A stretch of 64,000 nt of DNA from an uncultured Gemmatimonadaceae bacterium (GTDB lineage Bacteria; Gemmatimonadota; Gemmatimonadetes; Gemmatimonadales; Gemmatimonadaceae), in contig CAVUDW010000002.1 in the NCBI GenBank assembly GCA_963740355.1, positions 2,464,001-2,528,000 on the forward strand, given 5' to 3'. The position numbers were made by a program, and so were the translations under genes. The stretch's first letter is position 1. Each line of letters begins with the position of its first letter. A model generated the notes under the pieces. The model made no database searches. It was not told the DNA's origin and saw nothing but the letters and a program-made list of their open reading frames with translations. Positions 27,753 through 46,158 of the stretch are shown here, in pieces.

Positions 27753-28394
27753 CTATCGCGGCGTCACGCCGGACGGCACCCCAGTCGAGAGTGAAAAGCC
27801 AGAACCGGAGATTGGCCCGCCCTCATTCGGCGCATGTCGGAACGGACTGAAGATCAGCCAGAGCAGCACCACCAGGAATCCGAGCCCGGCCTGCCACTCG
27901 TTGTGACGCATGTAGAGCTTGAAGCTGAAGGCCCCCGACCGATCGGCACCCACCGGCCCCGACCAGGCAGACAGCCGAGGAATGAACGCCGGCACGTTGG
28001 CCTCGTATTCCGCATACGCCGCACCGTAGAGCCCGCGCAGGAAGTCACGCTCGCGTTCGATCGTCGGCTTGTAGACCACCAGCCAGAAGACCAACACCAG
28101 AATCACGGCCACCCAGTGCGCCGCGATCCCGAAGCCGAGCGCCAGCAGGAAGCTCCCGAAGTAGAGAGGATTGCGCGTGTGCGCGTACGGACCGGTCGTC
28201 GTGAGGACCTGATTCTTCACGATGTGCCCCGTCGACCAGGCTCGGATCAACGCACCGAGAAAGGCCACAATCCCCCCGACCAGGATCCGGTCGGGGGTCG
28301 CATACCGCGGAGCGAACCAGAGAAAAGCCGCGCCAAAGAGGAACCCGAGCGGAACGCGGATCCGCTGCGTCAGCGATCGTTTTCCGTCGTTCAC
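27753..28394 (-). CDS. isoprenylcysteine carboxyl-methyltransferase / phospholipid methyltransferase family membrane protein
   Basis: LTTTGPYAHTRNPLYFGS and E..L..LYG..Y.EY...VP.FIP motifs; TM segments. Confidence 0.88.
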   Translation of the reverse strand: MNDGKRSLTQRIRVPLGFLFGAAFLWFAPRYATPDRILVGGIVAFLGALIRAWSTGHIVKNQVLTTTGPYAHTRNPLYFGSFLLALGFGIAAHWVAVILVLVFWLVVYKPTIERERDFLRGLYGAAYAEYEANVPAFIPRLSAWSGPVGADRSGAFSFKLYMRHNEWQAGLGFLVVLLWLIFSPFRHAPNEGGPISGSGFSLSTGVPSGVTPR

Positions 28395-29608
28395 CCGGTG
28401 ATTTCCTTGACCAGATGGCGGGCAATCACAAGGCGCTGGATCTCCGATGTGCCCTCACCGATCTCACAGATCTTTGCGTCGCGCATGTATCGCTCGACGG
28501 GATAGTCCTTGGTGTAGCCGTAGCCGCCGTGGATCTGGATGGCCTTCAACGTCGCGCGCATCGCCAATTCCGAGCAGAAGAGCTTGGCCATGGCGGCTTC
28601 CTTGCCGTACGGCTTGCCCTGCTGCGCCAGCATGGTGGCGTGGTACGTGAGATGCTTCCCCGCCTCGATCTCGGTGGCCATGTCGGACAGCTGGAACGAC
28701 ACGCCCTGGAAGTTCACGATCGATTGCCCGAACTGCTTGCGCTCGATCGAATACTTGCGCGCCTCCTCGAACGCGCCCTCGGCGATGCCCAGCGAGAGCG
28801 CGGCGATGCCGATGCGGCCTGCGTCGAGTGTGCGCATGAAATTGATGAACCCCATCCCTTCTTCACCGAGCCGATTCTCGACCGGCACCTCGACGTTCTC
28901 GAAGATCAACTCGCGCGTGTCGCTGGCGCGCCAACCGAGCTTGTCTTCCTTCTTCCCGGCGCGGAATCCCGGCATCGGCACGATGGAATCGTCATGCCCG
29001 ATGCCAACGGCCCTGGCCGCCGCGAGGTCGACGGTTTCCTTGGTGAGGATGAAGGAACTGATGCCCTTCGTCCCCGCCGCTGGATCGGTGACTGCCGTCA
29101 CGATGAACACTTCGCCAACACCCGCATGGGTGATGAAGCGTTTCGTGCCATTCAGGATATAATGGCCGTTCTTTCGGACCGCCGTCGTCTCCGTTCCACC
29201 GGCATCGCTACCGGCGTTCGGTTCCGTGAGGCCAAAGCCGCCCAGCACCTTGCCGGCGGCCAGCAACGGCACGTACCGCTGCTTCTGCGCGTCGTTGCCG
29301 AAGTACACGATCGGAGATGTGCCGAGCGTGGTGTGGGCCGAGATCGTGATCGAGTGGCTGGCGCAGACCTTGGCCAGTTCATGGATCGCGATGATGAACG
29401 CGGTCTGGTCGAAACCTGTACCGCCCAGGTCCTCCGACCATGGAATGCCGAAGAGACCGAGATCGGCCATCTTCGCAATGTTTTCCCACGGGAACGACGA
29501 GTCGGCGTCGTGCTTCGCAGCGACCGGTCGGATATGGTCTTCTGCAAAGCCCCGGACCATTTCCCGGACCTGCAAGTGCTGTTCGTTGAAGTAAAGCGAG
29601 TCGTCCAT
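28391..29608 (-). CDS. acyl-CoA dehydrogenase
   Basis: FGLTEPNAGSDA, NGTKRFIT, RKQFG, QIHGGYGY and IGEGTSEIQR; start refined to MDDSLY. Confidence 0.95.
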   Translation of the reverse strand: MDDSLYFNEQHLQVREMVRGFAEDHIRPVAAKHDADSSFPWENIAKMADLGLFGIPWSEDLGGTGFDQTAFIIAIHELAKVCASHSITISAHTTLGTSPIVYFGNDAQKQRYVPLLAAGKVLGGFGLTEPNAGSDAGGTETTAVRKNGHYILNGTKRFITHAGVGEVFIVTAVTDPAAGTKGISSFILTKETVDLAAARAVGIGHDDSIVPMPGFRAGKKEDKLGWRASDTRELIFENVEVPVENRLGEEGMGFINFMRTLDAGRIGIAALSLGIAEGAFEEARKYSIERKQFGQSIVNFQGVSFQLSDMATEIEAGKHLTYHATMLAQQGKPYGKEAAMAKLFCSELAMRATLKAIQIHGGYGYTKDYPVERYMRDAKICEIGEGTSEIQRLVIARHLVKEITG

Positions 29609-29751
29609 TAGGCAGGCGTTGGGGGCAGCCACGTGTGGGCGCCCGTAAACCGGGAAGTTAGCGGATGGTGCTGCGGTCGGTGATGCAGGATGTGATTGAA
29701 GTCTCGGGCGGTGTCGACTGTTTCAGACGCACACCCTCGCCCTGATGTTTC

Positions 29752-34940: not shown

Positions 34941-35111
34941 TCAGTCGGTCGGTCCGCGCTCCGTGCGCTTCCGGACGAACCGGAGGATCAGCGCCACCGC
35001 CAGCGTGCCGATCGCGGCCAGGCGAAAGGGGTCGCTGTCCTCGAGAACGCCGTACCCGAACATGCCCGCGCCGATCAACGTGAGCGCGATCTGGACGGTG
35101 ATGATGGTCAC
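34941..35111 (-). CDS. small two-TM membrane protein (56 aa), below ORF-track cutoff
   Basis: MTIITVQIALTLIGAGMFGYGVLEDSDPFRLAAIGTLAVALILRFVRKRTERGPTD; GTG overlaps the hydratase stop; very high GC3. Confidence 0.75.
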   Translation of the reverse strand: MTIITVQIALTLIGAGMFGYGVLEDSDPFRLAAIGTLAVALILRFVRKRTERGPTD

Positions 35112-35914
35112 GGCTGGCGCGTCCGATCAAGGAACTTGCGAACGCCGGCACGGAAATCCTCCGTGGCACGGGACTCCACATTGGTGGCGACACCGATGCC
35201 GATGCTCTGCGCAAAGTCGAGATCGTCCATGCGGTAGAGCAACCGCTTGGTCAGGCCAACCGCCGTGCGCGGGGACTTCACCAGGGCGTCGATGGTCTTC
35301 GTCACCTCGGCCGGAAACGCCGCGGTCGGAATGCAGCGGCTGATGAGACCAATGCGCTCTGCCTCCGCCGCACTGATGAGGCGCCCTGTGAGCACCAGCT
35401 CTGCCGCCCGCTTCTCACCCACGGCCCGGCGCAGCATCGTCATGACCATCGCCGGAACGAAGCCGATCCGCACTTCGGGATAACCGAAGACTGCCGACTC
35501 TTCCGCGAGGACGATGTCGCATGCCGTCGCCAGGCCCGCTCCGCCCGCGAGGGCGCGGCCGCGCACGATGGCGACGATCGGCTTCGACATCTCGCGCATG
35601 GTCGAGAACACACGACCGAGCGCACGTGCGTCCTCGATGTGCGCGTCGGGGCCGCTCTCGAGCGTTGCATCGAGGGCCGTCAGGTCGGCACCGGCGCAGA
35701 AGTCGTCGCCGTCACCCTCGACGATGATCACACGCACGTCGTCCGCCGCCTCGAGTTCGAGCAGCGCTGACGTCAACTCTACGGCGGTCTGCTGATCGAG
35801 TGCGTTTTTCTTGTCTGGCCGTGCGAGCGTTATGACGCCAAGCCCCTCGGCGCGCACGGTGCGAATGCGCGACCGGACCACGGACAGCGACGACGGCGTC
35901 GGTCGGCTCATCAT
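35108..35914 (-). CDS. enoyl-CoA hydratase/crotonase (methylglutaconyl-CoA hydratase-like)
   Basis: RPDKKNAL, FCAGADL, GRALAGGAGL..ACD and FGYPEVRIG. Confidence 0.92.
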   Translation of the reverse strand: MMSRPTPSSLSVVRSRIRTVRAEGLGVITLARPDKKNALDQQTAVELTSALLELEAADDVRVIIVEGDGDDFCAGADLTALDATLESGPDAHIEDARALGRVFSTMREMSKPIVAIVRGRALAGGAGLATACDIVLAEESAVFGYPEVRIGFVPAMVMTMLRRAVGEKRAAELVLTGRLISAAEAERIGLISRCIPTAAFPAEVTKTIDALVKSPRTAVGLTKRLLYRMDDLDFAQSIGIGVATNVESRATEDFRAGVRKFLDRTRQP

Positions 35915-36292
35915 TTACTCCTGGTTGCCCTGCACTGGGAGTTTCAGCGCCGCCGCTTCGTCGGCCGGCACGTTCAACACCATGCGCAGCATGGCGGTCG
36001 ACACCACCTTGCCCTGTGCATCGGTCTTGAGTGACAAGGTACCACCGCCGTCGAGGGCGCCATGCAGCAGGAAGTTCAGCGCATTGAGATTCGGCAGTTC
36101 AAAGCGTTCGACCTTGCCGGAGATCAGTGCGCCGTAGTGATCGCGCACACGCTCGGTGGTGAGTTCGCGCGCCAATAGCGGATACCATTCCGGGCGCAGG
36201 GCAATCACGCCGCAATTGGCCATGTCGCCCTTGTCACCCGATCGGGTGTGCGCGAGATCGAGCAGGCGGACCTGCACTGTCGGCTGTGTCAT
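35915..36292 (-). CDS. AtuA C-terminal-like domain protein (standalone)
   Basis: [35 protein letters not shown] and D.QGK motifs. Confidence 0.85.
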
Positions 36293-37650
36293 GACACCAC
36301 CTCAACGTGCGTCGTGACGACGCGCTTGTCGATCAGCGCCGGCCAGTAGGCGATGACCTCCTCGACTTTCGGGCGACCACCGGCAAATCCGGTGACGCTG
36401 GGCGGACCATTGAGCACCAGGGGCGCGATCTCTCGTGTGAAGCGCTCGACGCTGGCCCGATCCTCACCTCGTACACCGATGCGGTATTGCACTTCTGGCG
36501 CGTCACGCCCGTCGCCCGCGAGGTGGCCGTGCGTGGCGTTGGCGCCGACGAATTCGGAAAGCACCTGGTCGAACTTCAGGCCGAGTCGATCGAGGCGTTC
36601 CCGCAAGATCCGATTGGCGAGCTCTGCTTTTTCCATCGCATCGGGCCATGAGTACACGAGCGAACCAACCGCCTTGTACCCGGCGCGATAAGCGATGGAC
36701 ACCTTGAGGAACGGCGTCGCAGGCCCACCGGCGATGCCGTGGACCCGGACACGGTTCTCACCGTCGGCGGCAACCCGAATCGACGTGAAATCCGCGACGA
36801 CGTCAGGCGTGATGTAGGCGTGAGGATCGCCCATCTCATACACCAACTGCTCGGTCACACTCGGCACGCTGACGCGTCCGCCGGTATTGGGATGCTTGGT
36901 GATCACGAATGACCCGTCCTCGACGACTTCGGCGATCGGGTAACCGATGTTCGCGAGGTCGGGGATCGAGCGCCATTCGTGCAGGCAATTGCCGCCGGAT
37001 GACTGCGCACCGCATTCGAGTATGTGTCCGGCGACGATGCCGGCAGCGAGCTGGTTCCATGAATCCGCCGCCCAGCCGAACTCATGTCGCAGCGGAGCCA
37101 TCGTGAGCGCGGTGTCTGTGGAACGACCCGTGACCACGATCTGCGCACCTTGTTGCAGCGCCTGCACGATGGGTGTGGAACCGATGTATGCGTTCGCCGA
37201 GAGCACCCTGCCTCGCACGGTGGAGAGCGGCGCGCCAGTCTCCATGTGCTTCAGCTCGTGCCCGGCCGCCAGCAACTCATCGATGCGCGGCAGGAGATCA
37301 TCACCGGTGACGACACCGATCTTCACCTTGCCACCGTGACCAGCCTTGGCGATCGCAGCGACCAGTGCTTGTGCACAGGCGACGGGATTCACGCCGCCAG
37401 CGTTGGCAATGACCTTCACGCCGCGTTCGACGATCCCGGGCAGCACGCTCTCGATCGCCCCGATGAAATCGCGCGCATACCCCATCGCGGGATCACGTTC
37501 CTTCTGCTTTTGCAGAATGGACATCGTGACTTCGGCGAGATAATCGAGCATGAGGTAGTCGATCGGCCCACCGTCGACCTGCTGCCGTGGCGCGTCGAGC
37601 GAATCGCCCCAGAAGCCCTGACCGCTGGCAACGCGTACCGTCCGTGTCAT
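36289..37650 (-). CDS. acyclic terpene utilisation AtuA family protein (DUF1446)
   Basis: [43 protein letters not shown] 37650 with SD GGAG. Confidence 0.92.
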
Positions 37651-37672
37651 CGTATCTCCAGGCGTGACTGCA

Positions 37673-39295
37673 TCACGCCATTTCCATCGGTTGCGGCGGG
37701 AGCACGAAGGCTCCGAGATGAGGGCCCGGATTGCGGCGCGCGGCGCGAAGCGCGAGCGCCAGCAAGGGGCGAGTGTCTTCGGGGTACACGATCGCATCCG
37801 CAAAACCACGTGCGGCAGCGTAGCGAGCGTCCAGCTGTTGTTCGTAGTCCTCGCGCATGGTGGCAATCGACTGCTGCAACTCGTCCGACGGAGCGGCACC
37901 GACTTTCTTCAACGCCTCGAGCGTCGGTCCGTGCACGGCCGCGATCGCGCTTTCGCCTTCCATGACGGCCATGCGACCGGTGGGCCAGCTGAGGATCAGG
38001 TCGGGATCGAAACCCTGCGCTGCCATGGCGTAGTAGCCGGCGCCGGACGCGTGGTTCACCGTCAGCACGATCTTCGGCACGCGCGCTGTCGCCATCGCCT
38101 CGACCCAGCGTGCACCAGCGCGAATGATGCCGTCGTGTTCTGCCTCCGGCCCAACCATGAAGCCAGAGACATCCTGCACGAAGAGCAACGGAATACCCTG
38201 CCGGTCGCAGCGATCGATGAAGAAAGCGACCTTCTCTGCGCTCTCGGCGTAAATGATGCCACCGAAACGCGGCTTCTCACCCGGGCGACCCTTGATCAGT
38301 CCGCGCTGGTTCGTGATCACACCAACCGCGATGCCTTCGATGCGAGCGTCGGCGCAGATCACTTCCTTCGCGAGGTCGCCCTGGAATTCCATCAGGGAGC
38401 CGGCGTCGACGACCGCCTCCAGCACATGGTGCATGTCGTAGGACATGCGATGGTCAGCCGGCAGCACATCGTAGAGCGACTCCGGCGCACGCGCTGGCGC
38501 CGTCGGGGCGACATCGGCGTTGCGAGCGTCGTGTTGCGCACCAGGCAGCCGCTGGATCATCTCGCGCAACATGCGCAAGCAATGCGGATCATCGTCGGCG
38601 GTGTAGTGTGCCACACCGCTGATCGCCGTGTGTGTGCTGGCACCACCGAGTGTTTCACCATCGATGGTCTGGCCGGTGGCGCCCTTCACCAGGTTCGGTC
38701 CGCCGAGTCCCATGAAGGAGGTGCCCTTCACCATCACGATCACGTCGCTGAGCGCCGGCAAATAGGCGCCGCCCGCGATGCACGGACCCATGACGGCCGA
38801 CAACTGCGGAATGCGCAGGTATCGCCGCATGATCGAGTTGTAGTAGAAGATGCGCGCCGCGCCGTACTGGCCCGGGAACACACCGCCCTGGTACGGCAGG
38901 TTAACGCCGGCGCTGTCGACCAGATACACGATCGGCAATCGACACCGCATCGCCAGTTCCTGCGCGCGGAGGATCTTCTTGATCGTTTCAGGCCACCAGG
39001 AACCCGCCTTCACGGTGGCGTCGTTGGCGACGATCACGACTTCACGGCCCTGCACGACGCCGAGCGCCGTGATCACGCCGGCCGCGGGGGCCTGGCCGTC
39101 ATACTGGTCGTACGCGACGAGCAGTCCGAGTTCGAGAAACGGGGCACCGACATCACACAGCGCGGTGACGCGCTCTCGTGCCGTCAGCTTGCCGCGGGCA
39201 TGCTCCTTTGCCGATCGCTCGGGACCGCCACCTTCACGAACTTTCGCCTCGACTTCCCGAACGGCGTCGCTGAGCTGCCGCAGGCGCGTACTCAC
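37673..39295 (-). CDS. acyl-CoA carboxylase beta subunit / carboxyltransferase (MCC/GCC-like)
   Basis: [37 protein letters not shown] and GAGYYAM. Confidence 0.93.
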
Positions 39296-39705
39296 GTCGG
39301 CAGCGACTCCTTCTCCGCAAACCAGGTGCGGATGAATTCGACCAGGTCAGCGGTACTCGTTCCGGGGCCGAAGAGCTGGCCGACGCCCTGTGCCTTGAGC
39401 GATTCCATGTCTTCCTTCGGGATGATGCCGCCACCCGTGAGGAGGATATCGTCGCGCCCCTGCTCCTTGAGCAACGTGAGCACGCGTGGAAAAAGCGTCA
39501 TGTGGGCGCCGCTGAGGATCGACAGCCCAACGACATCCACGTCCTCCTGGACGGCCGCCGTAGCGATCATCTCGGGGGTCTGGTGGAGTCCTGTATAAAT
39601 CACTTCCATGCCGGCGTCGCGCAGGGCGGCCGCCACAACCTTGGCACCACGGTCGTGGCCATCGAGCCCCGGCTTCGCCACCAGCACGCGAATCGGTCGG
39701 GTCAT
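39292..39705 (-). CDS. acyl-CoA mutase cobalamin-binding small subunit
   Basis: [10 protein letters not shown] (DxHxxG), SILSGAH and GGIIP. Confidence 0.95.
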
Positions 39706-39744
39706 AACACTGAGGTCGTAGGGACGAATGACAGCATGGGAAAG

Positions 39745-40530
39745 CTAGCGGCGGGTTCGCTTGCGAGGGAGCAATGGCTTCCGGGCCACCAGCAACATCT
39801 CGGCCGAGGTGCGGCGGAGGGGCCGATCCTCCAGCCCGTCATACACCGCCTCGACCTCGAGGCCGGCGTCGGTACAGAGCTCAGCGAGGCGCGTGGCCGT
39901 GTAGAGCCGGATCCGGTGCATGCGCTGACCGGCCCCGGACGGGCCCCGCCACGTGGTCTGGATAGTGATCTCACCGCTGATCGGGTCGAACGCGCGGTCA
40001 TGGCTGACGGCGGTGCCGTCCTGCGTCTTCCAGCTGTCGCGACCGACCCAGCGCGACACGACGCCGTCGCGGCTGCCGCCGTACCAGACCAAACGGCCGC
40101 CGGGCGCCAGCACCCTCGCGAACTCCTCGATCACAGTCGCGTCGTCGCGGGCGTCGTCGAAGAATCCAAAGGACGTGAACAGGTTGAGCACTGCATCGAA
40201 CTTGCCCGACCAGGGTGCGGGCAGCGAGCGCATGTCGCCGCGTCGGTACCGAAGTCGCTTGCCCGTGCCACGCTCCTTGGCGATGCGAAGCAACGGCATG
40301 GAGTAGTCGACGCCCGTGACGTCGTAGCCGGCCTCGGCCAGCAGGTGGGCGTGCCGTCCCTGCCCGCATGGACAATCGAGAATTGCCGCACCGTCGGGCA
40401 ACTCGAGGATTTCCATCAGACGCGTGACTTCGGCACGATTGATGGTTTCCTCGAACAGTGGCTCGAATTCGAGGAGATAACTCTCGTCGAAGTAGGTCTG
40501 CCACCATGCGGATTCTTGTCCAGGCGTCAT
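39745..40530 (-). CDS. class I SAM-dependent methyltransferase
   Basis: ILDCPCGQGRH, GVDYS, GDMR, FTSFGFF and LAPGGRL; start refined to MTPGQES. Confidence 0.9.
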   Translation of the reverse strand: MTPGQESAWWQTYFDESYLLEFEPLFEETINRAEVTRLMEILELPDGAAILDCPCGQGRHAHLLAEAGYDVTGVDYSMPLLRIAKERGTGKRLRYRRGDMRSLPAPWSGKFDAVLNLFTSFGFFDDARDDATVIEEFARVLAPGGRLVWYGGSRDGVVSRWVGRDSWKTQDGTAVSHDRAFDPISGEITIQTTWRGPSGAGQRMHRIRLYTATRLAELCTDAGLEVEAVYDGLEDRPLRRTSAEMLLVARKPLLPRKRTRR

Positions 40531-40572
40531 CGGATGCGACGGAAAGCTCTTGCCGAGGAGAACTGCGCGGGG

Positions 40573-40619
40573 AAAACACACCGACCGCCCGCGCCATCCA
40601 CGATGGCACGAGCGGTCGG
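40573..40619 (-). terminator. probable intrinsic terminator after the mutase large subunit
   Basis: CCGACCGC..GCCATC-GTG-GATGGC..GCGGTCGG followed by TGTGTTTT. Confidence 0.65.
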
Positions 40620-40672
40620 ATCATCAAGCGACCGACAACTGATCCGCGACGGACGCGGAACGCGGTGGTCGA

Positions 40673-42364
40673 TCAGAAGAAGACCGGCTCCCGATAGGCT
40701 CCGAACACATCCTCGAGCGCCGCACGAATCTCGAACAGGGTGGCATAACTGCGGGCGCAATCGAGGATCAACGGCACCAGGTTTGCCGATCCCCGCGCTC
40801 CACTACGCAACGCGTCGAGATTCCGCTGGACGGCGGCGTTGTCGCGCGTCGCACGCATGGTCGCCATGCGCTCACGCTGTTCGCGTTCCGCATCCATGCC
40901 AACCTTCAGCAGCGGGATGGTGATCTCCTCGTTGTCGTTCGTGAACTCGTTGACGCCGACCACCAGGCGCCGCCGCTGCTCGATTTCCCACTGATGCCGT
41001 GATGCGGCCTCGGCAATCTTGCGCTGGAACCACCCTTCCTCGAGTCCCTTCACGACACCGCCCTGCTCCTCGATCTGTGCGAAGAGTGCTTCGGCCTCGC
41101 GCTCGAGCGAATCGGTGAGTGATTCGACGTAGTAGGACCCGCCCAGTGGATCCATGACGTTCGGGATGCCCGTTTCGTAGGCGAGAATCTGCTGCGTGCG
41201 AAGTGCCACCTGCACCGCTTCCTCGGTCGGCAGCGCGAGGGTCTCGTCCATCGAATTAGTGTGCAACGACTGCGTGCCGCCGAGCACGGCGGCGAGCGCC
41301 TGATAGGCCACGCGCGCGACGTTGTTCATCGGCTGCTGTGCCGTGAGCGTCACACCAGCCGTCTGCGAATGGAACCGCAGCATCCACGACTTCGGATCGC
41401 GCGCACCGAATTTTTCGCGCAGGACACGGGCCCAGATGCGACGTGCGGCGCGCAGCTTCGCGATTTCCTCGAAGAAATCGTTGTGGATGTCGAAGAAGAA
41501 CGAGAGCCGCGGTGCGAACGAGTCCACGTCCAGCCCGCGCGCGATCCCGCGCTCGACGTAGGTGAAGCCGTCTGCGAGCGTGAACGCCAATTCCTGCGCA
41601 GCGGTCGCACCCGCCTCACGGATGTGGTACCCCGAGATGGAAATCGTGTTGAAGAGCGGCGCGTTCTGCGCGCTCCACTCGAATCCGTCGACGATCAGGC
41701 GCAGCGCGGGCTCGATCGGGAAGCACCAGGCATGCTGCGCCATGTACTCCTTCAGGATGTCGTTCTGGACCGTGCCACGAATCTTCGAGGCCGGCACACC
41801 CTGCTTCTCGGCGGCGGCGATGTAAAAGCAATAGAGGATCAGCGCCGGGCCGTTGATCGTCATCGACGTCGACACCTGGTCGAGCGGGATGCCGTCGAAG
41901 AGCGTCTCCATGTCGGCGAGGGATGAGATCGAGACGCCGGTCTTGCCGACTTCGCCTTCCGAGCGTGGATGATCGGCGTCGTAGCCCATCAAGGTCGGGA
42001 AATCGAACGCCACCGAGAGCCCGGTCTGTCCCTGCGAGAGCAGGAACTTGAACCGCTCGTTCGTGTCGCGGGCCGAGCCGAAGCCTGCGAACTGGCGCAT
42101 CGTCCAGAGCTTGCCGCGATAACCGGTGGGGTGAATTCCGCGCGTGAAGGGCCATGCTCCTGGCACTTCGAGTGCGATTTCCGGATCGGGCCCGTCGAGC
42201 GGTGTGTAGAGGGGCTCGACCGGGTTGGCAGAATTCACGTAGGCGATGTCGCGCTTCTCGCCCTTCTCGTAGCGTGCACGCCAGCTCGCTACTTCGTTGC
42301 GGAGCCGTTCGAGCTCAGCCTGCTGCTCGCGGACGGTCTCGGAAAGATCAGAGATCGAAGTCAT
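40673..42364 (-). CDS. B12-dependent acyl-CoA mutase large subunit, isobutyryl-CoA mutase type
   Basis: [44 protein letters not shown] and GGTQSLHTN. Confidence 0.93.
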
Positions 42365-43494
42365 GTCGGGAGCCCCGCCATCAGGGTTGCACTACGCGCC
42401 AGGAGCGCATCAGCGATTGCAAACGGAGTGGTGTCACCACGCTCGAGAGCGGGAAGCGCGTCATCGATGAACGACTGCGTGCCGGCGTCGCTCCACAACC
42501 GACGTCGCAGACGGTCCTCGGCAACCTCCACGACCCGTTCGCGCATCCGGCTCCGGCGCCGCTCCGCCAGTCCGCCTGAATCCTGAAGGTAGTCGAAGTG
42601 CCGGGTGATGGCCGCGAGGAGCTCGGGGATACCGCGGCCATCGGCCGCCACGGTATTCACCACGGCGGGGACCCAGCCGCCTGCGGCATGTGGGTCGGCC
42701 GAGGCTTCCCGCGCCGCTTTCGCCGGGGACAGCGCCTTCTGTGCGGCGGCCTTTTCGGCGGTGCCCAGCTTCCGCAGGTCTACTCCGTGATGGGCTGGTA
42801 CACCACGCATCGTGTCGCCCATCCGCATGCCCAACATCAATTCGATGTCGCCGCGCAGCCGGTCGGCACCCGGGCGATCACTCTTGTTGACGACGAACAG
42901 GTCCGCGATCTCCATCACGCCGGCTTTCAGCGTCTGGATGCTGTCGCCGCTCTCCGGGACGAGCACCACCACGCTGGTATCGGCCGTGCGCGCGACGTCC
43001 AGTTCACTCTGCCCCACACCGACCGTCTCGATGAGAATGCGGTCGAACCCGAATCCGTCCAGCACGTCGCACGTTTCGCGCGTGGCCGCAGCCAGCCCCC
43101 CGAGCGATCCACGGGTGGCCATCGACCGGATGTAAACGCCGGGATCGAGTGCGACCCGCTCCATGCGGATGCGATCACCGAGCAGCGCGCCGCCCGTGAA
43201 TGGCGAGGTCGGATCGACGGCGACGACGGCGACCGTCAGGCCATCGGCACGCATCGCCTCGACGAGGGCGGTGGTGATCGTACTCTTGCCTGCGCCCGGC
43301 GGCCCCGTGATGCCAATGCGTCGCGCGCGGCCAAGGCGAGGGTGGAGCACGGCGAGCAAGGCGTCGAAACCACTGCGATGGTTCTCGACGATCGAGATCG
43401 CTCGCGCCAGCGCGGCCCGTTGTCCGGCGTCGAATGCCGTCAGCAGTGATGCGATGGCCGGTGGCACGTTCACGGAATCAGCGATTCCAGTCAT
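42361..43494 (-). CDS. meaB: MeaB/ArgK-type GTPase chaperone of B12 mutases
   Basis: [37 protein letters not shown] and NKSD. Confidence 0.95.
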
Positions 43495-44465
43495 GTCGTG
43501 ACGGGATCTGGTTGGTGTTCATCATGTTCGTCGTCGATGTCACCCACGACTTCTTCGAGCAGGTCCTCCAGCGTCACCAACCCCAGCACCGGACCGTCGC
43601 CCTCGCGCACGAGCGCCAGGTGCTGGCGGTTCTGCAGCATGGCGAAGAGCTGGTCGCTGCACTTGCGATCGATCGACGCGATGCCGACCGGGCGCACCGG
43701 CAGCGCCGCCTCGCCCTCGCTGGTGAGGACGTCGCGCACGTGGACCATCCCGACGACGTTGTCGAGCGTGTCCTTGTACACCGGCACCCGGCTGTAACCG
43801 GACTGTGCGATCTGGCGTGCCTGGTCGGCATGCGAGAGGGTCACATCGAGTGCGAAGACCTGGTCGCGCGGCGTCAGGACGTCGCGCAATGTTTTATCAC
43901 CGAATGCGACCAATCCGGTGATGATCTCACGCTCTCCCGGCAAGCTGACACCCTCGCGTTCGCCTTCGCGGAGCAGCACCTCGAGCGCCTCGCGTTCGGC
44001 GTTCGCTGGCGTCGCCGTGCTTTCCGGGCGCAACACCCGCTCGAGTGCGCGCGCCGGGAGCAGGAACACCGCCAACACCACTTCGACGACCTGCAGCACC
44101 GGCAGCAGGAAGGGGGCCAACGGCACGGCCCAGCGCTGGCCGACGGCGCGGGGCACGGCAACGCCGAGGATCAGGATGCCCAGCGCGGTCAGCAGCAACC
44201 AGACGGCAAGAGTTCTCGGCTCGTCGCGCAGTGCAAGCGACAGCATCGCCCCGCCTGACAGGACGATGGCCGCTGCGCCCGCACCAGCGGCGTGCTGCAG
44301 CCGCTGTGGCTGCTCCAGGTAGGCCTCCGCCAGGCCGGCACCCCGCAATCGCTGCTCGACCCAGTGTCGCAGCCAGATACGACTGACCGCGCGCACCGCT
44401 TGCGACGCCAGCGTCATGGCTGCGACACCGGCAATGATGAGGAGGGCAAGTGAAAAGGAGCCCAT
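43491..44465 (-). CDS. CNNM/hemolysin-family membrane protein with CBS pair (no C-terminal CorC domain)
   Basis: TM N-terminus, SGYSRVPVY and GLVTLEDLLEEVVGDIDDEHD. Confidence 0.88.
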   Translation of the reverse strand: MGSFSLALLIIAGVAAMTLASQAVRAVSRIWLRHWVEQRLRGAGLAEAYLEQPQRLQHAAGAGAAAIVLSGGAMLSLALRDEPRTLAVWLLLTALGILILGVAVPRAVGQRWAVPLAPFLLPVLQVVEVVLAVFLLPARALERVLRPESTATPANAEREALEVLLREGEREGVSLPGEREIITGLVAFGDKTLRDVLTPRDQVFALDVTLSHADQARQIAQSGYSRVPVYKDTLDNVVGMVHVRDVLTSEGEAALPVRPVGIASIDRKCSDQLFAMLQNRQHLALVREGDGPVLGLVTLEDLLEEVVGDIDDEHDEHQPDPVTT

Positions 44466-45700
44466 CAGCCTTCCTCGCCGTCAGGGCTTTCGACCAGTGG
44501 CTCCAGTCGCTCGAAGTACACGCGCAGCACTTGCCGACGCCGCACCTGCTCGACGACCACGCGGAACCCGGCGATCTCCAGTTGCTCACCGGCCCGTGGT
44601 ACGCGGCCGAGTCGCTCCATGATCAAGCCGCCCACGGTGCCGACTTCGTCACTTTCGATGTCGACGCCAAGCGTCTCCGACAGCTCGTCGAGCGTGATCC
44701 GGCCCGTGACCCAGAATTCACGATTCGCCCGACTCTCGAACTGCCGCTCCGCTTCGGTGTCGTGCTCGTCCTCGATCTCGCCGACGATCTCCTCGAGAAT
44801 GTCTTCGATGGTGACGATGCCAGCGGTGCCGCCATACTCGTCCATGACGATCGCGATGTGCTTGCGCTGCGAGCGAAACTCACGCAGCAAGGCATCGATC
44901 GGCTTGGTCGGGGGGATGTAGTAACCAGGGCGCATCCGCGACAGCCAGCCCTGCGCGGGCTCCTCGTCGTCGAGAATGTCAGCGAGCAAGTCCTTCACAT
45001 ACAACACGCCGATCACGTCGTCGATCTGTTCGCGATAGACAGGCAGTCGCGAGTGCGCCGATGAGCGGAAGCGATCGATCACTTCCGACCAGGGCGTCTC
45101 GCGTTCGATTGCGATCAGCTCCACGCGCGGCGTCATGATCTCCTGCACCTGCGTTTCGCCGAGCGAGAAGGCGCCCTGCAACAGCGTCCGTTCCTTGCCC
45201 GTGACGTCAGCCTCGGCGGCCACGATGTCGAGGAACTGCTCGGTCGCCACATCGTCGGCGTCGGCATCGACCTTCGCGACCGGAAATGCGGAGGCGAGCC
45301 CATGCTCGACCCGTTCCATCAGGAGCACCAGCGGTGTCGCCATCAGCGTCACGAAAGCTGCCCAACCTGACAGCCACGCACTTGGGCCATCGGCACGTGT
45401 CGCACCGATCGTGCGCGCGAGGGTCTCGGCCGCGCCAACGACCGCCAGAAGCAGCACGAGCGCGGCGATCAATTGCGGGCCTGACTCCTGCCAGAGCGGT
45501 GGTGCCACGGCACCGGCGAAGAGGAAAAACAGCAGTCGCGAACCGCTCAGCGCCCGATGCACGCGTTCACGATCGCGCACCAGCCACGCCCGACGCACAT
45601 CGTCGGCCGGACCGGCGGTGAGGCTTGTGACAAGGCCATCCGCCGCAACGGAGGCACCGGCGGCGAAGAGAAGGAATGCGAACAGCAGCCAGAGCAGCAT
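44465..45700 (-). CDS. CNNM/HlyC-CorC family protein with CBS and CorC domains
   Basis: IMTPR, HSRLPVY, DEYGGTAGIVTIEDILEEIVGEI and TVGGLI; start refined to MLLWLLF. Confidence 0.9.
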   Translation of the reverse strand: MLLWLLFAFLLFAAGASVAADGLVTSLTAGPADDVRRAWLVRDRERVHRALSGSRLLFFLFAGAVAPPLWQESGPQLIAALVLLLAVVGAAETLARTIGATRADGPSAWLSGWAAFVTLMATPLVLLMERVEHGLASAFPVAKVDADADDVATEQFLDIVAAEADVTGKERTLLQGAFSLGETQVQEIMTPRVELIAIERETPWSEVIDRFRSSAHSRLPVYREQIDDVIGVLYVKDLLADILDDEEPAQGWLSRMRPGYYIPPTKPIDALLREFRSQRKHIAIVMDEYGGTAGIVTIEDILEEIVGEIEDEHDTEAERQFESRANREFWVTGRITLDELSETLGVDIESDEVGTVGGLIMERLGRVPRAGEQLEIAGFRVVVEQVRRRQVLRVYFERLEPLVESPDGEEG

Positions 45701-45705
45701 ACCGG

Positions 45706-46158
45706 TCAGACGAGGCCGCGACGAATGGCGGCACGGAGATACTTCTCCTGTGCACGCCACATCGGCGACTGCACGCGGGCCTCACCATCCGGATGTTCGA
45801 GGCCCAGCGTGTGCAGCGTACCGTGGATCACCAGGCGCGCGATCTCCTCGCGGACCGGCACGCCCCACGCCTTCGCGTTCAGTCGCGCGACGTCGGCGCA
45901 GATATACATGTCCCCCGTCACCGGAGCGTCATTCACGGGGCGTGTCAGCTCGAAGGTGATGATGTCCGTCGCACCGGCGTGCCCGAGCTGCTCGCGATTC
46001 ATCCGCGCCATGGCCCGCGACGAGAGGAACGTCACGCTGATGATGGCGTCATCGATTTCTTCCGCCTTCAGTGTCAGGCGGACGAGTGCATCAACTCGTG
46101 CGGCACTGAGTGGCGCACGCTGGCCGCCCGGCGCGGCAGACTCGACTTCGATCGGCAT
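45706..46158 (-). CDS. ybeY: rRNA maturation endoribonuclease YbeY
   Basis: TDIITF and HGTLHTLGLEH; adjacent to phoH. Confidence 0.92.
   Translation of the reverse strand: MPIEVESAAPGGQRAPLSAARVDALVRLTLKAEEIDDAIISVTFLSSRAMARMNREQLGHAGATDIITFELTRPVNDAPVTGDMYICADVARLNAKAWGVPVREEIARLVIHGTLHTLGLEHPDGEARVQSPMWRAQEKYLRAAIRRGLV

Follow-up and report, generated by a model that had tools for sequence, protein, structure and literature searches.

Here, we describe a nine-gene array of an uncultured soil Gemmatimonadaceae bacterium in which two AtuA-type proteins, encoded beside a carboxyltransferase and a B12-dependent acyl-CoA mutase, may take the place of 3-hydroxy-3-methylglutaryl-CoA (HMG-CoA) lyase. 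The window, by which we mean the whole stretch of 64,000 nucleotides that was analysed (G000:C2:2464001-2528000), comes from a genome, G000, of 5.4 Mb and 94.5% completeness, and all nine genes lie on the minus strand between its positions 43494 and 34941. Proteins closely related to those it encodes are labelled Gemmatimonadaceae. Family-model searches returned strong Pfam or NCBIfam matches for eight of them, the exception being an open reading frame (ORF) of 56 amino acids (aa). Together with measurement of the junctions, these matches confirm what an earlier annotation made from the letters alone (the sequence-only reading) had proposed, namely nine same-strand genes that mostly overlap or abut.

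Read along the minus strand, the array opens with MeaB (42361-43494), which scores 304 bits with PF03308 and 341 with TIGR00750 (cut-off 241) and carries the P-loop GPPGAGKST. It is followed by the mutase large subunit (40673-42364; 563 aa; PF01642, 736 bits), of the isobutyryl-CoA mutase type by its Phe/Gln pair; by a class I methyltransferase dependent on S-adenosylmethionine (39745-40581; PF13649 and PF08241), whose start is uncertain between a GTG at 40581 and an ATG at 40530; and by the B12-binding small subunit (39292-39705; 137 aa; PF02310, 93 bits; TIGR00640, 177 bits), with the motif DGHDRG (DxHxxG). Then come the beta subunit of an acyl-CoA carboxyltransferase (CT; 37673-39295; 540 aa; PF01039, 451 bits) that resembles the beta subunit of 3-methylcrotonyl-CoA carboxylase (MCC); AtuA itself (36289-37650; 453 aa; PF07287, 510 bits), the proposed large subunit of a carbon-carbon lyase like the citramalate lyase CmlAB; the AtuA ferredoxin-like protein, or AtuA-Fd (35915-36292; 125 aa; PF23544, 99 bits), the proposed small lyase subunit; a crotonase-family enoyl-CoA hydratase (35108-35914; 268 aa; PF00378, 174 bits), which we propose to be a 3-methylglutaconyl-CoA hydratase; and the 56-aa ORF (34941-35111), without a family match.

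Overlaps of 4 nucleotides (nt) occur at five junctions, those between an upstream CNNM gene and MeaB, MeaB and mutase, B12 subunit and CT, AtuA and AtuA-Fd, and crotonase and the 56-aa ORF. AtuA-Fd and crotonase abut, and the gaps are 22 nt between CT and AtuA, 39 nt between methyltransferase and B12 subunit, and about 90 nt between mutase and methyltransferase. We place the start of AtuA at 37650 and not at a GTG at 37899, as the open frame is exactly 453 aa long in four relatives; the codon-position GC of the upstream extension, which is not coding-like, also favours this start.

The distribution of the AtuA pair is the result on which our interpretation mainly turns. Genome-wide searches bear out the earlier observation that genes for biotin carboxylase, biotin carrier, HMG-CoA lyase and epimerase are absent from the window. 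A methylmalonyl-CoA epimerase lies outside it, at C2:1735359, and no HMG-CoA lyase (HMGL) was found in the genome: the best score with NF004283 is 42.9 bits against a cut-off of 246, and PF00682 matches only frames of 539 and 421 aa, so that no gene of the LiuE kind was seen. Across a sample of 121 Gemmatimonadota genomes (completeness at least 85%; G086 and G125, both unpublished, are included), AtuA and the canonical lyase are nearly exclusive. The NCBIfam model for HMGL is passed in 9 genomes, an AtuA orthologue occurs in 94 and a CT orthologue in 98; AtuA without HMGL is found in 91, the two together in three, HMGL without AtuA in six, and neither in 21, 17 of which belong to families f10-f12 and are also without CT. 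AtuA accompanies CT in 91 of the 98 CT-bearing genomes, and five of the other seven have HMGL over the cut-off; of the remaining two, G060 carries an HMGL-like gene below the cut-off (190 bits) and G143, whose CT sits on a contig of 2974 bp, has neither.

In the AtuA-less genomes, the run from MeaB through mutase and B12 subunit to CT, with or without the methyltransferase, is intact, and AtuA and AtuA-Fd alone are gone; the crotonase is retained in G062 and G106. A maximum-likelihood tree of 43 CT sequences includes six AtuA-less rows, whose positions require four changes, at least three of them forced by well-supported branches; as judged from this tree, AtuA is lost in at least 3-4 separate lineages. 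This repeated loss just where HMGL is present is the strongest evidence that the AtuA pair may carry out the HMG-CoA-cleaving step. HMGL reaches the cut-off in none of five AtuA-bearing genomes of other phyla, all five of which have a CT homologue and both types of mutase.

Replacement of AtuA by HMGL in situ was considered and rejected, as HMGL lies elsewhere in 10 of the 10 loci fetched; the vacated AtuA site holds DinB, P450, saccharopine-dehydrogenase-like and histidine kinase genes. In two AtuA-less genomes, G062 (L146:8223-10476) and G072 (L147:8189-11691), HMGL is followed by genes for CoA-transferase subunits (PF01144) and, in G072, also has a family III CoA-transferase gene before it; the arrangement looks like a lyase plus an acetoacetate-activation unit. 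Companionship of HMGL and acetoacetate CoA-transferase, which would suit an AtuA that yields acetoacetyl-CoA directly, was dropped as evidence: genus g17 has HMGL and no PF01144, and some PF01144 gene occurs in 32 of the 121 genomes, G000 included.

AtuA (DUF1446) is needed for terpene use in Pseudomonas, and to our knowledge it has never been given a demonstrated reaction since the atu cluster was described. The statement of the sequence-only reading that the protein has no settled role is nevertheless outdated, since one solved structure, that of citramalate lyase subunit A (9erq/9evf), is of an AtuA-family protein. The window pair belongs to this family, with PF07287 and PF23544 on two adjacent genes that overlap by 4 nt. 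A profile of 42 AtuA relatives matches one PDB sequence, that of CmlA (9erq_A, E 2.7e-15), and the best match of the predicted AtuA structure (pLDDT 95) is 9evf_A (E 2.9e-27, TM 0.74), the next having E 8.7e-4 and probability 0.25. For the AtuA-Fd model (pLDDT 90), 9evf_B is the sole PDB match at E <= 0.001 (E 9.3e-4, probability 1.00); searches of PDB sequences with AtuA-Fd, as a single sequence and as a 23-row profile, gave nothing relevant, and the fold search alone found CmlB. Thus neither AtuA nor AtuA-Fd has a clear structural match other than its counterpart, chain A or B, in the two-subunit citramalate lyase of Raoultella planticola, in which the E-C of the motif GH[LI][IL]EC is conserved. 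The models suggest that, taken as a pair, the two window proteins resemble this enzyme.

That the two AtuA proteins belong together is indicated by this two-chain fold match and by fusion proteins: AtuA is fused to AtuA-Fd in many homologues, and two proteins, P0233 (898 aa) and P0220 (843 aa), are triple fusions that carry AtuA, AtuA-Fd and the hydratase in one polypeptide. The triple fusions further tie hydratase and AtuA to consecutive steps. Another protein, P0122 (1257 aa), joins a Ser/Thr protein kinase and TPR repeats to AtuA. In the alignment, the AtuA-Fd proteins share an invariant HxRSGDKGD stretch near the N-terminus, which looks like a phosphate- or nucleotide-binding loop and is of interest because ADP is present in the solved citramalate lyase complex.

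For CmlAB of R. planticola, a direct cleavage of citramalate into pyruvate and acetate has been described (bioRxiv 10.64898/2026.01.16.699985), so that acetate is split off a tertiary-alcohol acid, and AtuA is listed as a 3-hydroxy-3-isohexenylglutaryl-CoA (HIHG-CoA):acetate lyase in PMC4847356. A DUF1446 gene had earlier been placed in an enterobacterial cluster for glutamate mutase, methylaspartase and mesaconase, the citramalate-cleaving step of which was unknown at that time (PMC4682846). CmlAB differs from the window pair in taking a free acid and in having, in Enterobacteriaceae, those three enzymes as neighbours (PMC4682846); here, the neighbours are enzymes of CoA esters, and the context of a citramalate cluster is missing.

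The CT is closest, among characterised proteins, to MCC beta subunits. Against solved structures it scores 393 bits with Mycobacterium tuberculosis AccD1, 390 with Pseudomonas aeruginosa MCC beta and 355 with human MCC beta, as compared with 309 for the geranyl-CoA carboxylase beta subunit and 274 for Streptomyces coelicolor PccB. Residues ~329-343 (window 38267-38311) form a 15-residue insertion relative to AccD1 and P. aeruginosa MCC beta, directly after the conserved VGVITNQ stretch in the C-terminal half. The biotin subunits, which the sequence-only reading had advised seeking elsewhere in the genome, are indeed there. The two biotin carboxylases, both stand-alone (450 and 504 aa), are on contigs C1 and C4 only, and biotin/lipoyl domains are on C1, on C4 and at two distant sites of C2. 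On C4, a second, PccB-like CT accompanies the 504-aa biotin carboxylase and a separate carrier protein, and on C1 an AccC-like carboxylase accompanies a carrier.

The crotonase has the generic hydratase 1uiy as its best PDB match. It scores 93 bits against the 5jbw/5jbx chains, which we take to be LiuC, and no specific model reaches its cut-off. Ten acyl-CoA dehydrogenase matches occur in the genome, of which the single one typed is that of the window (28391-29632, minus strand), 5.3 kb downstream of the cluster. This short-chain enzyme is of the butyryl-CoA type, as its best PDB matches are butyryl-CoA dehydrogenases (5ol2_C, 415 bits; 1buc, 331 bits) and isovaleryl-CoA dehydrogenases reach 238-259 bits. 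The gene lies past those for a U32 peptidase, a DUF4760 protein and RecQ, on the same strand as the cluster, and its product is a possible follow-on enzyme of the mutase.

The B12-dependent part of the array has the split architecture of IcmA/IcmB, with 563- and 137-aa subunits, and shares with IcmA/IcmB and MeaB of Streptomyces, and with IcmF, the Phe/Gln pair, the DxHxxG motif and a MeaB gene that overlaps that of the large subunit. It differs from them in that the nearest solved sequence is HcmA, the large subunit of 2-hydroxyisobutyryl-CoA mutase (559 bits, E 1e-166), followed by methylmalonyl-CoA mutases (MCM), and not IcmF (297 bits). At the first substrate position, alignments give RQF-AGF for the window mutase against RQY-AGF for human MCM and RQI-AGF for HcmA; at the second, KEYMAQ stands against KEFMVR of human MCM, a change of Arg to Gln. 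A separate stretch reads SVAFD against STDFD of HcmA, a change of Asp to Ala. The protein therefore has neither the Tyr and Arg of MCM nor the Ile and Asp of 2-hydroxyisobutyryl-CoA mutase. We take the two substrate positions to be Tyr89/Arg207 of Propionibacterium MCM, the HcmA residues to be Ile90 and Asp117, and the Phe/Gln pair to be the mark of isobutyryl-CoA mutases. As Gln stands in place of the Arg of carboxylate-binding mutases, the carboxylated CT product is not expected to be a substrate of the enzyme.

By tblastn, MeaB and the mutase-type B12 small subunit are each single-copy in the genome; three further PF02310 matches sit in frames of 565, 1272 and 346 aa away from the window. 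A second mutase large subunit (536 aa; G000:C2:2211691-2213301, locus L051:9691-11301) reads RQY and KEYIAR and is thus of the Tyr/Arg, methylmalonyl type. It is flanked by genes for fructose bisphosphatase and arginyl-tRNA synthetase, with no B12 subunit or MeaB adjoining, and to judge by the gene content must either borrow the window's small subunit or have an unrecognised partner. The small subunit and MeaB of the window are probably common to both large subunits, which would be a further difference from IcmA/IcmB; so would a catabolic role, as opposed to the supply of polyketide precursors described in PMC2847961. In two genomes of one genus (G090:C1:908749-909846 and G107:C1:3283247-3284347; L188 and L189), the split Phe/Gln mutase is absent and an IcmF-like gene is found instead, with open frames of 1165-1178 aa and KEDQAQ at the Gln position.

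The linkage of these genes is strong within the order and looser beyond it. AtuA is present in all 41 Gemmatimonadales genomes examined, G000 included, and is 84% identical to that of the window in the cultured Gemmatimonas phototrophica; gene order and strand are the same in 15 of the 15 neighbourhoods fetched from three families of the order: AtuA-Fd is found in 15, CT and the B12 gene in 14 each, and mutase, MeaB and crotonase in 13 each, the misses of CT, B12 gene, mutase and MeaB falling at contig ends. In families f2 and f3, CT and AtuA are separated by a same-strand subtilase gene of 937-1005 aa (L036:10736-13549, L038:10833-13820, L156:11222-14239), and the B12 and mutase genes by baeRF-family and HAD genes. 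A biotin carboxylase had been considered for the gap between CT and AtuA in these families and was rejected, as the subtilase fills it.

A further comparison covered 80 loci in named genomes, each surrounding an AtuA orthologue with 54-82% identity; many are cut by contig ends, so that all counts are lower bounds. The 34 Gemmatimonadota loci have CT in 30, AtuA-Fd in 31, crotonase in 18 and a mutase or B12 gene in 28. For the 20 loci of Blastocatellia/Pyrinomonadaceae, the corresponding counts are 9, 13, 11 and 8; for eight of Bryobacterales/Terriglobia, 6, 2, 2 and 0; for 15 of the Ignavibacteria/Bacteroidota/Chlorobi type, 0, 10, 0 and 0; and for three otherwise labelled, 0, 2, 1 and 0. The arrangement in Blastocatellia differs, with the mutase genes convergent 2-5 kb off or the B12 gene directly upstream of AtuA; in Pyrinomonadaceae, a second crotonase adjoins the mutase, and in four annotated loci of the Ignavibacteria type, AtuA has housekeeping genes as neighbours. 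Of 28 neighbouring mutases, the 26 readable at both motifs all have Phe and Gln; of the remaining two, one shows the Gln motif only and one is cut off. The mutase-AtuA linkage that the sequence-only reading had made its touchstone across phyla therefore holds in the Gemmatimonadales and, rearranged, in part of the Pyrinomonadaceae group (8/20), and fails in other families.

When the 121 genomes were scanned at the DNA level with a strict pattern for W-T-x-R-Q-F-x-G-F, 97 of them had exactly one match each, and a control pattern had none; family f6 is missed solely through R-L-F and keeps the Gln in three of three genomes checked. The mutase is present without AtuA or CT orthologues in f11 and f12 (6/6 genomes) as well as in G072 and G144. 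Outside the order, mutase and AtuA are less than 10 kb apart in 4 of 13 genomes checked (G058, G078, G145, G103), 90-760 kb apart in G087, G110, G093, G099 and G108, and on different contigs in G115, G125, G133 and G134. Since the linkage of mutase and AtuA is lost in 9 of these 13, while CT and AtuA stay side by side almost everywhere in the sample, the mutase and CT/AtuA modules are associated but separable.

Taken together, we favour, at a probability of about 0.58, a reading in which the array encodes two separable modules that break down acyl-CoAs with a methyl branch, valine and leucine being the most likely sources, with the AtuA pair replacing HMG-CoA lyase. In the first module, MeaB, the Phe/Gln large subunit and the genome's single B12 small subunit would most likely interconvert isobutyryl-CoA and n-butyryl-CoA, bringing valine carbon into ordinary beta-oxidation, and MeaB and the small subunit would probably serve the unlinked Tyr/Arg large subunit as well. 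The butyryl-type dehydrogenase downstream, the crotonase beside the mutase in Pyrinomonadaceae and the IcmF-like replacement are consistent with this valine route, and do not prove it. Like the Liu and Atu pathways, the second module would remove a beta-methyl branch: CT, with biotin carboxylase and carrier encoded in trans, would carboxylate 3-methylcrotonyl-CoA; the crotonase would hydrate 3-methylglutaconyl-CoA to HMG-CoA; and AtuA/AtuA-Fd, as a CmlAB-like two-subunit enzyme, would cleave HMG-CoA in place of the classical lyase. If the cleavage follows CmlAB and the HIHG-CoA:acetate lyase reaction proposed for AtuA, its products may be acetoacetyl-CoA and acetate rather than acetoacetate and acetyl-CoA. 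A nucleotide-dependent mechanism is possible, given the ADP in 9evf.

The earlier proposals that the genes serve branched acyl-CoAs and that they offer a useful context for assigning a function to AtuA are both supported by these results. The proposal of one joined pathway of rearrangement, (de)carboxylation and hydration is not supported, given the Gln for Arg exchange, the mutases without AtuA or CT, the AtuA and CT genes far from a mutase, and the unrelated genes within the array. The sequence-only reading had also set its pathway against standard leucine or propionate catabolism alone; what we find comes close to the latter, except that the lyase step is non-standard.

Several points weigh against the two-module reading. 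The identity of the window pair to CmlAB is just 15-16% (16% for AtuA and CmlA), CmlA has Lys where the AtuA group has the invariant His of GH[LI][IL]EC, and the solved complex holds ADP according to the title of 9evf, so the chemistry may differ from that of a simple lyase. No fused MCC alpha subunit was found in the genome, and one of the two biotin carboxylase/carrier sets adjoins the PccB-like CT. The crotonase is of a generic type, with no NCBIfam model reaching its cut-off; known methylglutaconyl- and isohexenylglutaconyl-CoA hydratases match it at just 88-93 bits against 165 for the generic enzyme, and it is absent from 2 of the 15 order-level neighbourhoods and found in only 18 of the 34 Gemmatimonadota loci. 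No isovaleryl-CoA dehydrogenase was identified, one of the ten acyl-CoA dehydrogenases having been typed, and isobutyryl- and pivalyl-CoA mutases are not separable by sequence here. The exclusion of HMGL by AtuA comes from a small sample in which kin are not independent, so that the two-by-two counts overstate the evidence; the two occur together in three genomes, and HMGL is never inside the cluster. Lastly, all substrates, the regiochemistry of the cleavage, the sharing of the small subunit and the biotin subunits used are deduced from sequence.

A bolder version would have the AtuA pair be a widespread second HMG-CoA-cleaving enzyme that has no kinship with HMG-CoA lyase, cuts on the free-carboxyl side, gives acetoacetyl-CoA and acetate (or acetyl phosphate, should the ADP of the CmlAB structure be a sign that ATP is consumed) and is wired to the Phe/Gln mutase, possibly acting on pivalyl-/isovaleryl-CoA, as a single B12-dependent branched-chain pathway in Gemmatimonadales; we regard this as unlikely. 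A related and rather improbable alternative, which gives the joined pathway of the sequence-only reading a definite form, is a single linear pathway in which an isovaleryl-/pivalyl-CoA mutase feeds pivalate-type (quaternary-carbon) substrates, as isovaleryl-CoA, to dehydrogenase, carboxylase, hydratase and AtuA lyase. The mutase set and CT do stay adjacent even after the loss of AtuA, Phe/Gln mutases lie beside CT and AtuA in two phyla with differing arrangements, and Gln for Arg suits an uncarboxylated substrate; IcmF, moreover, is reported to interconvert isovaleryl-CoA and pivalyl-CoA too (PMC10481361). The nearby acyl-CoA dehydrogenase is, however, of the butyryl and not the isovaleryl type, and the near-universal presence of the cluster in the class suits a core amino-acid function over a rare substrate. 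The window mutase also retains the Phe of isobutyryl-CoA mutases, and it is an enlarged site at that position that favours pivalyl-CoA. The mutases that occur without CT and AtuA (f11 and f12, 6/6; G072; G144), the nine unlinked cases among 13 genomes outside the order, and the genus in which an IcmF-like enzyme takes the mutase's place likewise count against a single linear pathway.

More doubtful still is an isoprenoid pathway of the Atu type, in which CT would be the beta subunit of a geranyl-CoA-type carboxylase and the B12 mutases would take terminal isobutyryl-CoA and propionyl-CoA. It was the inference of the sequence-only reading, and it would account for the membership of AtuA in its family (510 bits), for CT, hydratase and AtuA as three core Atu steps (as given in PMC4847356), and for the two mutase types, whose substrates the breakdown of isoprenoid chains would yield. 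The CT, however, scores 390 bits with MCC beta against 309 with geranyl-CoA carboxylase beta, genes like atuB/D/F/G/H were not found in the array, AtuA orthologues sit among housekeeping genes in Ignavibacteria and relatives, and the alternation of AtuA with HMG-CoA lyase points to HMG-CoA as the substrate. We consider least probable that the genes are neighbours by descent only, with MeaB and mutase serving propionate and valine and with CT and AtuA unrelated to them. Tight co-directional packing does extend into the flanking genes, upstream to two CNNM/CBS genes and downstream to those for the U32 peptidase, DUF4760 protein and RecQ, so that packing alone does not define an operon here; methyltransferase, subtilase, baeRF and HAD genes are interspersed among the metabolic genes; and the linkage is lost in families f7-f9 and, for two of three genomes checked, in f6, with no mutase within 10 kb in 8/8 Bryobacterales/Terriglobia and 15/15 Ignavibacteria/Bacteroidota-type loci. 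Against this, 8 of the 20 Blastocatellia loci have a Phe/Gln mutase or B12 gene less than 10 kb from AtuA, partly in convergent orientation, a differing arrangement that inheritance of gene order from a common ancestor does not explain; in addition, each of the five outgroup genomes tested has AtuA together with a CT homologue and a Phe/Gln mutase.

When the two modules are set beside known systems, the Liu pathway for the use of leucine and isovalerate (liuABCDE, Pseudomonas) is close in logic, with a CT of the MCC-beta kind, then a crotonase-family hydratase, then a cleavage, the first two steps being expected to lead to HMG-CoA. The present cluster departs from it in that LiuE is nowhere in the genome and the AtuA/AtuA-Fd pair is there instead, in that the fused LiuD alpha subunit is replaced by separate biotin carboxylase and carrier genes on other contigs, in that LiuA was not identified, and in the B12 mutase set alongside; we know of no Liu cluster with such a set. 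The Atu pathway (atuABCDEFGH, Pseudomonas), with the AtuC/AtuF carboxylase, the AtuE hydratase and AtuA, shares both AtuA and AtuA-ferredoxin domains and the same sequence of carboxylase, hydratase and AtuA. It differs in its dehydrogenase, synthetase and alpha-subunit genes, which are absent here, and in its carboxylase, as the CT here is closer to MCC than to geranyl-CoA carboxylase; AtuA, moreover, is split here into 453- and 125-aa genes and fused in many homologues, the Thauera protein being given as 615 aa (PMC4847356). ThnQ and ThnS of the anaerobic naphthalene thn operon are likewise AtuA-like lyases among beta-oxidation-like genes for CoA esters, though in a pathway for ring-cleavage products, and the operon table of that source has no CT or B12 mutase (PMC12016498). 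Our literature search found no published account linking AtuA to a B12-dependent acyl-CoA mutase; three papers that contain AtuA, mutase and carboxylase concern, to judge by title and abstract, other topics. Each kind of enzyme is already known, and the cluster by itself reveals no new chemistry; what sets it apart from the Liu and Atu clusters is an AtuA-type lyase at the place of HMGL, the missing alpha subunit, and an adjoining B12 set of the isobutyryl-CoA mutase type with a single-copy chaperone and small subunit.

The alternation of AtuA with HMGL in at least 3-4 independent lineages, with the rest of the cluster unmoved, predicts a specific activity and so makes the function of AtuA testable. 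If the two-module reading is true, current annotations wrongly show leucine catabolism as incomplete in Gemmatimonadota, many Acidobacteriota and Ignavibacteria-type bacteria, and the pathway would be closed in metabolic models of these groups, which are abundant in soil; a cleavage that yields acetoacetyl-CoA would also free leucine breakdown from the activation of acetoacetate. One B12 small subunit and one MeaB that apparently serve two large subunits would offer a case for cofactor-loading chaperones with several clients.

Some features of the array and its surroundings stand apart from these modules. The methyltransferase is probably a passenger gene, as it is found in only 16 of the 34 Gemmatimonadota loci and is replaced by baeRF and HAD genes in f2 and f3. 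The 56-aa ORF is coding-like in composition (third-position GC 0.93), has two hydrophobic stretches and is conserved at 82-88% identity in two congeneric genomes; it is probably a small two-helix membrane protein, for which no tie to the pathway was seen. Locus L059 (CALQGY020000009.1), from a metagenome-assembled genome labelled Candidatus Kuenenia stuttgartiensis, carries a full array of the Gemmatimonadaceae type with an AtuA 82% identical to that of the window and a CT that groups inside Gemmatimonadaceae on the tree, and its placement is probably a binning error in that assembly. Upstream of the array, tandem CNNM/CBS genes of the CorC/HlyC type (window 43491-45760, minus strand) overlap each other and MeaB by 1-4 nt and are syntenic with the cluster throughout Gemmatimonadaceae; CorC-type proteins are annotated for Mg/Co transport, and a tie to the supply of cobalt or B12 is conceivable.

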